From: an uncultured Bacilli bacterium
GTDB taxonomy: Bacteria > Bacillota_I > Bacilli_A > RF39 > UBA660
NCBI GenBank assembly: GCA_934097015.1
Contig: CAKONF010000003.1
Coordinates: forward strand, 630-64,629
DNA: 64,000 nt
Direction: 5' to 3'
Position numbers and translations under genes: made by a program. Below, piece by piece: positions 30,770 through 32,350 of this stretch (within the stretch, counting starts at the first letter, position 1; the number at the start of each line of letters is the position of its first letter). The notes below the pieces were generated by a model. It made no database searches. It saw only the letters and a program-made list of their open reading frames with translations, and was not told the origin of the DNA.

Positions 30770-32350
30770 ATGAGTAGAAAGCAGAGAATAGTAATAAGTA
30801 TAACAGGAATAGTTTTGGTAATGTTAATATTAGTAGGATTAACTTACGCATACTTTTTAACAAGAATAAATGGAAATACAAATGATAAAAGTATAAGTGT
30901 ATCAACAGCAAACTTAGAATTAAAATATGATGATATAGAACAAGTATTAATAAGCGAAGAAAATGTAGAACCAGGTAAAACATGGACTAAAAAATTTAGT
31001 GCAACAAATACTGGAAGTAAAAAAGTAGAATCATATGGAATTGCACTAGAAAATGTAATAAATACATTAGAAAGAACAGAAGATTTAGTATATACACTAA
31101 ATTGTACTAGTAGCTTAGGAACTGATTGTAATAAAGTAGAAGATGAACAAGAATTTCCAACAATGGGCAAAATACTTATTACAAATTCAATAGAATCAAA
31201 AGAAATACAAAGTTATGAATTAACTATCACATATAAAGAACAAAATATAGATCAAAGTATAGATATGAATAAACAATTTAGTGCAAAAGCAAACTTAGTA
31301 AATCCAAGTACATTTAATCCATATGTTGGCTCAATGCTAAATAGTGTAATAATTGGAAGTGCAAAAAATGCAAGCAAAGAAAGTGATACGACAAGAACAA
31401 CATTAGGTAGTGAAGTGACTGAATTCACATCAGTATCAGGAGAAAATGAAAGGGTATTAAACAATGCACCAGATGATTATGGAACAAGTTATTACTATAG
31501 AGGAAATGTATTAGACAATTATGTATCATTTGCAAATAAAACATGGAGAATAGTAAGAATAAATGGAGATGGAAGTGTACGACTTGTACTTGATGATGTT
31601 GCAAAGGATACAAGTGGTAATGTACTAAGAACAGCGTTTAATTCAAGTTCTAATGATAATGCATATGTAGGATATATGTATGGAACAGTAGGAAGTACAA
31701 CATATGATGCAACACACAAGAATATTAATGATAGTATAATAAAAACTAAAGTAGATAAATGGTATGAGGATAATTTAAAAAAAAATTATGCAAACTATTT
31801 ATCAGATACATTATTCTGTAATGATAAAACTCTTGCTTCAAGTTCTATAGGTGAAAATAATACTGCATTAGGTTATGGAAAAAATAAAACATATTATTCA
31901 TCAACAGAGAGATTACAATATAGTACAGGAACAACAAGGATAACAACATCAAAACCAACATTCAAATGTTCAGAAAATGCAACAAATACATATTCAAGAT
32001 TTACAGTAAATGAAACAACATTATTAAATGGAAATAAAACAAATGGAGATTTAAAATATCCAATAGGATTACTCTCAGCAGATGAGGTAGCTTATGCGGG
32101 AGCGTATAAGTCTGGTTATTTGTATGACTCATCTATAACTTCTCATTGGTGGCTTTCGTCTCCGCGCGACTATAATGGTTCGCTTGCGCACGAGTGGTTC
32201 GTTGTATATTCGAATGGTATCATCAACGACATCGTCGTCAGCAACACTTCTCTTGTTGCTTTCCGCCCTAGTTTGAGTCTAAAGGCTAGTGTGCTAATAA
32301 ATGGAGGAGATGGAACTAGTTCAAATCCGTATACCGTAAAGCTATCGTAA
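30770..32350 (+). CDS. Secreted protein with SipW-type signal peptide, TasA/camelysin-like N-terminal domain and a C-terminal W-x-L-S-S-P ... GDGT..NPY module
   Basis: The N-terminus MSRKQRIVISITGIVLVMLILVGLTYAYF resembles the SipW-cognate signal class. It is followed by ...STANLELKYDD...VEPGKTWTKKFSATNTGS. The start is set at the ATG at 30770 because the track start at 30737 lies at or before the predicted TSS. Confidence 0.65.
   Translation: MSRKQRIVISITGIVLVMLILVGLTYAYFLTRINGNTNDKSISVSTANLELKYDDIEQVLISEENVEPGKTWTKKFSATNTGSKKVESYGIALENVINTLERTEDLVYTLNCTSSLGTDCNKVEDEQEFPTMGKILITNSIESKEIQSYELTITYKEQNIDQSIDMNKQFSAKANLVNPSTFNPYVGSMLNSVIIGSAKNASKESDTTRTTLGSEVTEFTSVSGENERVLNNAPDDYGTSYYYRGNVLDNYVSFANKTWRIVRINGDGSVRLVLDDVAKDTSGNVLRTAFNSSSNDNAYVGYMYGTVGSTTYDATHKNINDSIIKTKVDKWYEDNLKKNYANYLSDTLFCNDKTLASSSIGENNTALGYGKNKTYYSSTERLQYSTGTTRITTSKPTFKCSENATNTYSRFTVNETTLLNGNKTNGDLKYPIGLLSADEVAYAGAYKSGYLYDSSITSHWWLSSPRDYNGSLAHEWFVVYSNGIINDIVVSNTSLVAFRPSLSLKASVLINGGDGTSSNPYTVKLS

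Follow-up and report, generated by a model that had tools for sequence, protein, structure and literature searches.

What does a conspicuously A-rich gene encode when it directly follows a Tad-like operon in an uncultured bacterium, and does that position bear on its function? We addressed this question for a stretch of 64,000 nucleotides (hereafter the window) from an uncultured Bacilli bacterium (contig CAKONF010000003.1, positions 630 to 64,629, forward strand). The gene is a coding sequence of 526 amino acids (aa) on the plus strand at 30770..32350, with the ATG at 30770 and the stop codon at 32348-32350. Its product begins with MSRKQRIVISITGIVLVMLILVGLTYAYF and is one member of a family of predicted surface or secreted proteins that exists in many copies. 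Two features of the gene are the most informative, and both are absent from the earlier note on this DNA: a variable region of the kind written by diversity-generating retroelements (DGRs) and a leader hairpin containing a run of eleven G residues (G11).

The window has a G+C content of 24%, and its nearest public records are metagenome-assembled genomes (MAGs) of uncultured Bacilli or 'Tenericutes' from the human gut (Hadza and others) and Candidatus Ventrenecus. All related sequences used for comparison are metagenome assemblies, and L- and P-numbers are labels of related loci, contigs or proteins. As these are consensus assemblies, repeat-rich junctions and homopolymer lengths may be misassembled, and population heterogeneity is hidden. 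Pfam scans within the window covered the operon, the neighbouring genes and the unassigned small open reading frames (ORFs), out of a window total of 63 ORFs.

A DGR-type variable region at the C-terminal end

Residues 457-501 are encoded by a G+C-rich segment of 134 nt (32138..32271, plus strand) that was delimited by comparison with template repeats and by a drop in A3, the share of A at fourfold-degenerate third codon positions. A3 amounts to 0.71-0.81 over 30770-32137 and falls to 0.04 in 32138-32272; in 21 paralogues it is 0.72 outside and 0.02 inside the variable region. The scaffold TGGTGGCTTTCGTCTCCG...GCTTTCCGCCCTAG is present, and its 3' boundary, the 14-mer GCTTTCCGCCCTAG (32258-32271), is common to the variable region and the template repeats. 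Directly after CCCTAG, the sequence diverges from the template repeats. Adenine avoidance at fourfold sites and a shared 3' boundary are both marks of a DGR target.

The template repeats were recognised in related genomes, where a 111-nt piece of the target (32138-32248) matched sequence 3' of the paralogues' stop codon. For L003 and L008, 17 of 128 positions distinguish the variable region from the template repeat, every one of them an adenine in the template, and the downstream copy is full of AAC codons. Adenine-only differences combined with an AAC-rich copy are the signature of a template repeat/variable region pair. The complete L010 cassette comprises the target, a template repeat (20 of 21 mismatches at adenines), a MutS_I protein of 148 aa, a bAvd-like protein of 113 aa (38.9 bits) and an RVT_1 reverse transcriptase of 332 aa (71 bits). 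The same gene order was found beside a distant paralogue of 713 aa (L070), with RVT_1 at 55 bits and MutS_I present; the 115-aa ORF at the Avd position matched no Pfam family. When 15 distinct variable regions were compared, the share of copies that differ was 52% at template-adenine positions and 7.8% at all other positions. Additionally, a remote copy (L024) compared with the template repeat of the same MAG has 13 of its 14 mismatches at adenines. Remote targets and MutS-like accessory genes are established features of DGRs (PMC5758913).

The window's own variable region is 81% identical to the L003 template repeat, and against the template repeats of other genomes its mismatches number 24-26, of which 18-20 fall on template adenines; it also carries a 6-nt insertion. 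A closer comparison is offered by L097, which occupies the same locus after the gene labelled tadC. The two alleles differ at 22 positions of the variable region, and 20 of these are template-adenine positions (P = 9.5e-10, given that 38 of 111 positions are adenine in a known template repeat). The flanks of the two loci are 98-100% identical, the segment encoding the N-terminal domain 48-91%, the variable region 72-76% and its surroundings 93-98%. Because the differences fall nearly all at template adenines, they imply either that retrohoming took place after the two strains had separated or that an allele written in that way was imported. The variable region of the window gene was thus probably written by DGR retrohoming.

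Several further observations concern the retroelement modules in this lineage. Template-repeat copies lie beside family genes without an adjacent reverse transcriptase or Avd gene in L033 (2167-2288) and in L003, L007 and L090 (~11726-11874), and the L090 copy has a 1-nt deletion. The DGR modules appear to be duplicated and decaying within the lineage. In the window, a 148-aa protein encoded at 58905-59351 (plus strand) starts with MNKGFTLVELIAVVVILSLLAIITTP, a classical type IV pilin/pseudopilin N-terminus unrelated to the Tad-like cluster; similar N_methyl genes immediately precede the DGR target locus in L003, L007, L010 and L090.

Domains of the encoded protein

The variable region forms the end of a DUF6273-like (C-type-lectin-like) domain (31382..32347, plus strand) that was assigned from homologue matches and from a match in BFVD. 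PF19789 (DUF6273) is matched by 22 of 79 close homologues (best E 7.4e-7), and the full-length model searched against BFVD retrieved a phage DUF6273 protein at rank 10 (E 9.3e-4, 287 columns). DUF6273 has been described as a C-lec fold and is a published DGR target (PMC10743442; bioRxiv 10.1101/2024.10.15.618418). The C-terminal 310 residues also occur, sometimes repeated many times, in giant proteins. A sequence search against solved structures gave nothing meaningful for the protein.

The window holds one further ORF with a trace of this domain. It encodes 372 aa at 54020-55138 (minus strand), has an N-terminal membrane helix and carries the family core motif SYYFKGDKVNNNIIFDGLLWKITKINNDGSIRLI (tblastn, 44% over 36 aa, E 8e-7). 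The ORF ends in ...GDGSEENPYVV and has neither a Pfam match nor the G+C-rich variable-region scaffold; it most likely represents a remote relative of the C-terminal domain that is not diversified.

At the other end of the protein, a hydrophobic helix (residues 7-29; 30788..30856, plus strand) ends in GLTYAYF (residues 23-29), which fits the SipW-class motif G-x-T/S-aromatic-A-x-F and is a predicted signal. Equivalents in distant paralogues are GVSYAFF, GASYAYF and GSTLAWF, and residues 1-50 are almost invariant across paralogues. The Pfam family Peptidase_M73 (PF12389) begins to match at this helix, scoring 28.0 bits where the gathering threshold is 22.5 (E 2.4e-6); the match spans residues 4-98 and profile positions 3-90 of 196, which is the first half of the profile only, and 44 of the 79 close homologues match it too. 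When the family profile was aligned by hhalign to a TasA sequence entered by hand rather than retrieved from a database, 79 columns aligned (E 1.8e-4, probability 49%), comprising the signal peptide, the TxAxF motif (TWAAF/TYAYF), the first strands and PGDKLTKDFQFENNG/EPGKTWTKKFSATNTG (PG..TK.F...N.G). No SipW-class signal-peptide model was among the NCBIfam matches at E<=0.1.

A TasA-like beta-sandwich follows at about residues 42-178 (30893..31303, plus strand), as delimited on an AlphaFold2 (AF2) domain model. The model of residues 29-205 has a mean pLDDT (predicted local distance difference test) of 79, with a core near 90. The Foldseek search of the PDB placed the TasA fibre (8aur_A) at rank 2 among generic beta-sandwiches, with E 1.8e-3, probability 1.00 and template modelling (TM) scores of 0.49/0.39. 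Between alleles of the same locus, the beta-sandwich segment is the most divergent part of the gene.

The earlier note had described a TasA/camelysin-like N-terminus with a SipW-type signal peptide, and the SipW-class TYAYF motif, the above-threshold M73 match, hhalign and Foldseek support this resemblance. The fold check that it proposed came out partly: the TasA fibre does appear, at rank 2, as a weak match. Its statement that the window lacks a sipW-like peptidase also holds, since no signal peptidase I was found there by a six-frame scan for the box-B motif or by Pfam on the unassigned small ORFs. Likewise, neither the signal peptidase I box-B motif nor sipW was found at 96 related loci.

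Promoter, leader hairpin and G11 run

At unrelated loci, homology between paralogues begins about 240 nt before the ATG and covers the leader. Scans detected a sigma-70-type promoter-like site, TTGATA-17 nt-TAATAT with a TG before the -10 box (30476..30504, plus strand), which would serve as the gene's own promoter. A matching arrangement stands directly upstream of TTAAGGTAG in L052 (TTGCAA-17-TAATAT), L014 (TTGATA-17-TATAGT) and L011 (TTTACA-17-TATATT). Next come two leader motifs (30509..30559, plus strand), TTAAGGTAGAAATACC, which can form a GGUA-GAAA-UACC mini-hairpin with a GNRA tetraloop, and ATTTTCTATTCATAAAAAAGAT. Both are conserved in paralogues at unrelated loci (for example, in the leader of L052, 7180-7260) and lie upstream of a terminator-like hairpin. 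Rfam returned no family for the leader at the gathering score or at E<=10, so a known riboswitch or RNA family was rejected, and the motifs are a candidate for an undescribed cis-regulatory RNA of this gene family.

Folding predicts a long hairpin at 30562..30643 (plus strand) with a pyrimidine 5' arm, a 3' arm containing the G run and T6 (30638-30643) after it, an arrangement that resembles an intrinsic terminator or attenuator. The predicted folding energy is -55.8 kcal/mol (z -4.25) for the 241-nt leader and -33 kcal/mol for the hairpin alone. In an RNAalifold analysis of 17 copies, the G run pairs with the C/U tract, ten C-G/U-G pairs are kept through C<->U changes, and three outer hairpin pairs show compensatory changes.

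The G11 homopolymer (30601..30611, plus strand) lies 159 nt before the ATG and is the sole G or C run of at least 7 in the 64-kb window. At 87 related loci (1.31 Mb), all 26 runs of at least 8 are coding-strand G located 17-222 nt upstream of a family ORF, and these ORFs carry the TasA-class N-terminus. By estimate rather than computation, chance at this base composition would produce far fewer than one such run. In distant paralogues, the run is placed in the promoter spacer (TTGACA-c-G8-10-ttgtta-TATAAT); the scans gave TTGACA-16-TATACT for L070 and TAGACA-16-TATACT for L058, each spanning G9, and a 15-nt spacer with G8 in L057 and L077. A G run in a promoter spacer is the classical layout of slipped-strand phase variation. 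For the window gene, this arrangement was rejected because there is no acceptable -35 box 16-18 nt from the TATAAA that follows the run.

The predicted stability of the hairpin is -29.3, -31.0, -33.0 and -32.9 kcal/mol for G9 to G12, that is, about 2 kcal/mol per G with a plateau at G11. Exactly G11 is found in 14 of 21 type-A copies and in all six assemblies of the window locus; the prevalence of G11 at the point where stability saturates points to a structural constraint. A survey of G runs in JGI metagenomes yielded three matches only (G10, G11 and G12), too few for use. In short-form paralogues, the ATG comes about 25 nt after the T run, which leaves no room for a promoter, so their hairpin must lie in the 5' untranslated region; this argues for conditional read-through. 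The long-form leader of the window gene contains an insert (30690..30732, plus strand) with the near-palindrome TACTATAGGCCCATGGTA (30690-30707) and TATAAT (30727-30732), conserved in the paralogues L006, L022, L033, L042, L045, L088 and L091-L094. The ribosome-binding site AAAGGAAGAG was read from the sequence at 30750..30759 (plus strand). We read G11 here as a structural part of the leader terminator or attenuator, and the leader probably gates or insulates transcription.

Codon composition

The A-ending codon use that the earlier note had reported for the gene, together with the T-ending use of the Tad genes, is clear from the counts. Target and Tad operon compare as follows: ACA/ACT 40/13 versus 40/102, GTA/GTT 27/5 versus 59/102, GGA/GGT 24/8 versus 41/80, and GCA/GCT 17/4 versus 31/56; serine and proline codons of the target show the same A-ending preference as threonine, alanine, glycine and valine. 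At fourfold sites, the target has A3 0.68 (window mean 0.37, z +3.0) and T3 0.22 (window mean 0.57, z -3.2). The gene also has a G+C content of 30%, against 24% for the window. The five antisense ORFs of 62-108 aa mentioned in that note are present (30672..31719, minus strand); they are by-products of the A-rich, T-poor sense strand and show no sign of coding.

Whether this makes the gene compositionally foreign, as had been proposed, is another matter. Other plus-strand genes have A3 of about 0.32 and a fourfold T preference of about 0.62, and the target is atypical beside them. Minus-strand genes of the window favour A3 as well (0.48-0.69), so the target is an outlier for its strand and not for the whole window. 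Across 86 family genes from many MAGs, A3 is 0.56 +/- 0.09 compared with 0.40 +/- 0.11 in co-oriented neighbours, and a 68%-identical homologue among T3-preferring neighbours has the same A bias. Since it is common to 86 genes in many genomes, the bias is a family trait and not a mark of recent import here.

Four other sources of the bias were considered and rejected. Despite the UNN anticodons of the window's serine, valine and threonine tRNAs, A-ending codons are not translationally optimal, because the ribosomal-protein operon (L037) and the EF-Tu/S12 genes (L083) of related genomes favour T-ending codons. A foreign DGR cassette does not supply the bias, as the reverse transcriptase, Avd and MutS-like genes are T3-rich. 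It is not general to surface proteins, given that the SpaA gene at the alternative site after tadC has A3 0.27. An invertible segment or recent inversion is contradicted by the lack of flanking inverted repeats and by a bias exceeding that of minus-strand genes.

Some side observations touch on codon use. The serine, valine and threonine tRNAs of the window have UNN anticodons, as do all its tRNAs for four-codon boxes. Another predicted surface protein, of 469 aa, is encoded with host-like T-ending codons at 52519-53928 (plus strand); it is rich in Ser and Asn, is anchored in the membrane and contains a Listeria-Bacteroides repeat (Flg_new, 50 bits). In L003, the sole other strongly A3-biased co-oriented gene (5698-6909, A3 0.56) encodes an ORF6N-domain, antirepressor-like protein, a hint that in these genomes A-ending use could be a sign of mobile genes or of genes that moved recently.

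Family distribution and the Tad-like cluster

The family is large: one search returned 5645 homologues and another 5950 clusters at 50% identity. Among the best 80 matches, single MAGs (CAKOOJ01, CAKOOU01) hold at least 14-15 copies, many at contig ends. The closest relatives of the target (80-84% identity) reside at four other loci, namely CtpB-Spo0A, RecX-like-PrsA, PriA and N_methyl pilin-like-LemA. The copy at RecX-like-PrsA comes from the same sample as the window's twin contig (L001), and at the N_methyl-LemA locus the strain alleles are very different, 61-84% identical to the target. In IMG/VR, only two distant matches to the C-terminal domain were found, and a phage origin of the whole family was therefore rejected.

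The earlier note had regarded the position directly after a Tad operon as a meaningful pairing and had asked for recurrent linkage. Neither finds support. Tad genes occur within 10 kb of only two of the 87 family loci, one of them L001, the window's twin, and the other L084, where the family gene lies about 3 kb upstream of a Tad-like cluster and not after tadC; the remaining 85 have none. An identical TadC occurs in 22 contigs, and the family gene or its leader comes next in seven of them. The other 15 have a gene for a 961-aa SpaA-domain protein and then rimM/trmD after tadC, and in a sister species (TadC 88% identical) tadC is followed by small ORFs and rimM, with no family gene. The SpaA/rimM alternative indicates a large rearrangement whose breakpoint is immediately 3' of tadC and which is polymorphic within the species. 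The SpaA-domain protein itself (L098 6021-8906; L099) has a C-terminal membrane anchor. The Tad adjacency is, from this synteny, a strain-specific accident, and a functional link to Tad in trans likewise gains no support from gene order. The suggestion that the gene was acquired separately stands as far as the strain-polymorphic rearrangement goes, but its codon bias does not indicate a recent import.

The Tad-like operon lies outside the gene's own system and consists of seven co-oriented genes (22134..30420, plus strand), encoding proteins of 231 aa and 920 aa, a DUF5411 protein, a CpaB-like protein, a TadA-type ATPase and two polytopic membrane proteins. Profile matches support the ATPase (T2SSE, 100 bits) and DUF5411 (167 bits), and CpaB/RcpC weakly. 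The two polytopic membrane proteins had no profile match in Pfam or NCBIfam, so the labels 'tadB' and 'tadC' reflect position and size alone. NCBIfam gave no informative name for the target or its Tad neighbours except the ATPase and a weak CpaB match. Neither an Flp pilin gene nor a prepilin peptidase gene could be recognised in the cluster, and its 920-aa protein is Cys-rich. The ATPase gene, intact in the window (363 aa), is split in the twin contig L001/L101 (254 + 103 aa; L001 6870-7952).

Other features of the window

On its 3' side, the gene is followed by a 130-aa ORF, then by LigD/Ku on the minus strand and ComEA/ComEC. An ORF of 99 aa (39867-40166) duplicates the C-terminal metallo-beta-lactamase part of ComEC (35834-37885), and the two copies bracket two genes of intermediate codon usage. 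One of these encodes a 244-aa protein (38037-38771) with the look, by eye only, of a DUF1016-type nuclease, and the other an M9/MA-type peptidase-like protein with an HELFH motif (38791-39513). The region 37600-40166 gives the impression of DNA inserted into comEC at its 3' end. Among the RNA genes of the window are 10-11 tRNA genes in two divergent clusters, a class B RNase P RNA and a 6S RNA (14338-15439, 49715-50051 and 62289-62467).

Discussion

The observations are best explained by a protein made of three modules that would be exposed at the cell surface and bind a ligand. The conserved N-terminal hydrophobic segment with its SipW/TasA-class motif would be cleaved or kept as a membrane anchor; it is followed by the TasA-like beta-sandwich and by the DUF6273/C-type-lectin-like domain, whose last ~45 residues form the variable region. 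An invariant template repeat would be transcribed and then reverse-transcribed with random substitution at adenines by the reverse transcriptase, acting with Avd and the MutS-like accessory protein. The cDNA would replace the variable region up to the shared GCTTTCCGCCCTAG boundary (mutagenic retrohoming). In this lineage, the template repeat and reverse transcriptase are situated at another locus (N_methyl pilin-like ... LemA) and would act in trans. Because the template locus is elsewhere and several paralogues at scattered sites have matching variable regions, we regard the window gene as a remote target or a recent ex-target. The gene would travel as a cassette with its own promoter and its hairpin/U-run leader, to which we attribute a regulatory role.

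Several findings weigh against this explanation. The 64-kb window contains neither a template repeat nor a reverse transcriptase. Against every available template repeat, all from other genomes, the variable region shows 4-8 non-adenine mismatches and the 6-nt insertion, and it departs from a strict A-to-N-only pattern. In L007, the closest strain with a long contig, the template-repeat locus lacks the reverse transcriptase and Avd, and the variable region of that locus has 10 non-adenine mismatches; the DGR element may be decaying in this species. The gene, including its variable region, is identical in L001 and differs by at most one base in L100 and L101, which gives no indication that diversification is still going on. 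With regard to the domains, the window protein itself has no PF19789 match at E<=0.1, the AF2 confidence in the C-terminal domain is patchy, only parts of it being modelled confidently, and the Foldseek matches to TasA are weak, none reaching E<=1e-3. Nothing about a DGR would account for the strong A-ending bias in the rest of the gene, and the bias is unexplained.

The strongest competitor holds that DGR writing belongs to the past and that the gene is now a fixed adhesin allele, varying through recombination with its paralogues while the element is inactive. The near-identity of the gene in L001, L100 and L101 agrees with it, as do the identity of P0013 in six contigs from different samples despite an adjoining template repeat, the template loci without reverse transcriptase or Avd in L003, L007 and L090 (with the 1-nt deletion in L090), the non-adenine mismatches and 6-nt indel against known template repeats, and the mosaic same-locus alleles, in which an N-domain of 48-91% identity is set between flanks of 98-100%. 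Yet sister MAGs hold strict adenine-only pairs (17 of 17, 20 of 21) and an intact cassette, the window and L097 alleles differ almost solely at template-adenine positions within surroundings that are 93-98% identical, and a reverse transcriptase may be present elsewhere in the genome. We consider this explanation quite possible, at somewhat less than even chances, and give continued rewriting of the variable region similar odds. A contingency locus, in which slippage of G11 would switch this copy on or off so that a cell displays one or a few paralogues, is unlikely. It draws on the placement of all 26 G runs just upstream of family ORFs, on the promoter-spacer runs of L070, L058, L057 and L077, and on near-identical copies that vary in length (G10, 11, 12 and 13); the window-type run is, however, the 3' arm of a hairpin and not between -35 and -10, its length is G11 in all six assemblies of the locus and in 14 of 21 type-A copies, where predicted stability saturates, and G10 in both P0003-locus assemblies, although consensus assemblies are blind to heterogeneity within a population. 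Slightly better placed, and still a doubtful proposal, is a two-layer surface variation system of uncultured, small-genome gut Bacilli in which at least 15 paralogues with a TasA stalk and a lectin head are served by one trans-acting DGR and the extreme A-ending codon use of the family outside the variable region is selected for and does not reflect ancestry. Here, a G-tract promoter or leader would decide which paralogues are expressed, with the run in the promoter spacer in some lineages and in the leader terminator hairpin, maybe an undescribed cis-regulatory RNA, in this one; the reverse transcriptase, Avd and the MutS-like protein would then rewrite the lectin tips of many copies.

The two explanations closest to the earlier note fare worse. 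A recent import from a donor rich in A-ending codons and G+C, with no special mechanism, would account for A3 of 0.68 beside about 0.32 in plus-strand neighbours, for a G+C content of 30% against 24%, and for the gene's position at the breakpoint of a rearrangement that not all strains of the species share. It is improbable, since the bias is found in 86 family genes down to ~33% identity, at which synonymous sites should have equilibrated; moreover, the family is nearly absent from viral contigs apart from the two distant C-domain matches, the genes for the DGR reverse transcriptase, Avd and the MutS-like protein prefer T-ending codons, as the host does, and the local G+C peak is accounted for by the variable-region scaffold. 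Least probable of all, in our judgement, is a TasA-like fibre subunit coupled to the adjacent Tad-like machine for export or assembly. The adjacency in the window and in seven of 22 contigs of the species, the L084 gene near a Tad-like cluster in a second lineage, the TasA-like N-domain and the unusually conserved first 50 residues would fit this. There is also a precedent in Clostridium perfringens, where secretion of BsaC and efficient secretion of oligomers of the TasA-like BsaA need type IV pilus-associated genes; the BsaA operon includes a SipW peptidase (PMC11580942). Set against this are the SpaA gene and rimM after tadC in 15 of the 22 contigs, with no family gene in the sister species; 85 of 87 family loci without Tad genes within 10 kb and closest homologues at four other loci; the gene's own promoter and the terminator-like hairpin between it and tadC; the absence of sipW beside any of 96 loci; and a 330-residue lectin-like domain foreign to known TasA fibres.

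Among known systems, the protein would behave like a DGR variable protein of the C-lec/DUF6273 class and like a target in a Treponema-type system with several remote targets, and its front end resembles TasA. Most described DUF6273 targets of Firmicutes are phage receptor-binding proteins. In C-lec DGR proteins such as Mtd of Bordetella phage, TvpA of Treponema denticola and the DUF6273 targets of gut phages ('tentaclins' and Mtd-like proteins), the variable region is likewise at the C-terminal end. The AAC-rich template, the adenine-specific differences and the shared 3' boundary recall the DUF6273 DGR targets of gut phages (PMC10743442; bioRxiv 10.1101/2024.10.15.618418), and the cassette of Avd, reverse transcriptase and MutS-like genes, present here in paralogues, recalls C-lec/DUF6273 DGRs. 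In contrast to the phage targets, this gene is chromosomal and cellular, fuses a SipW-class N-terminus and a TasA-like beta-sandwich to the target domain and has at least 14-15 paralogues; the window copy furthermore lacks a nearby template repeat and reverse transcriptase and is below the DUF6273 threshold. The DGR of T. denticola (PMC5758913) also serves scattered targets from one reverse-transcriptase/template locus and is not phage-associated, but here the related genes are more numerous, many have drifted or lost the scaffold (e.g. L006), and some copies (L033, L003) have their own duplicated template repeat without a reverse transcriptase.

The N-terminal motif, the PG..TK.F...N.G strand motif and the beta-sandwich are shared with TasA/CalY (PF12389) and with BsaA of C. 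perfringens, from which the protein differs by its half-profile M73 match, the lack of a sipW or tapA neighbour, its twofold length and the lectin-like domain. The window copy is not a full member, in the strict sense, of either the DGR targets or the TasA family. As with the poly-G/C contingency promoters of Campylobacter and Neisseria (PMC8355987, PMC5084427), the family has a run of G8-13 directly 5' of surface-protein genes in an A+T-rich genome, placed in the -35/-10 spacer in distant paralogues. The window run differs in that it lies in a leader hairpin, is constant in length across assemblies of the locus and fits full pairing. Full-text literature searches found no paper combining DGRs with TasA, and among the papers listed by those on camelysin, SipW or these Bacilli lineages, none combined them with a DGR term.

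For annotation, the locus is a warning that 'TasA/camelysin' labels and inference from neighbours ('next to tad') can mislead. It also opens to test remote multi-target retrohoming, a G-tract leader or promoter in two architectures of one family, and a codon-composition anomaly that ends exactly at the variable-region boundary. DGRs are, to our knowledge, unmatched in power among natural systems that diversify proteins, and their density is highest in the human gut. A hypervariable lectin head on a TasA-like module, encoded on the chromosome of uncultured A+T-rich gut Bacilli (Hadza and other gut metagenomes), suggests how these organisms may vary their adhesion, be it to host glycans, to other microbes or as phage decoys.

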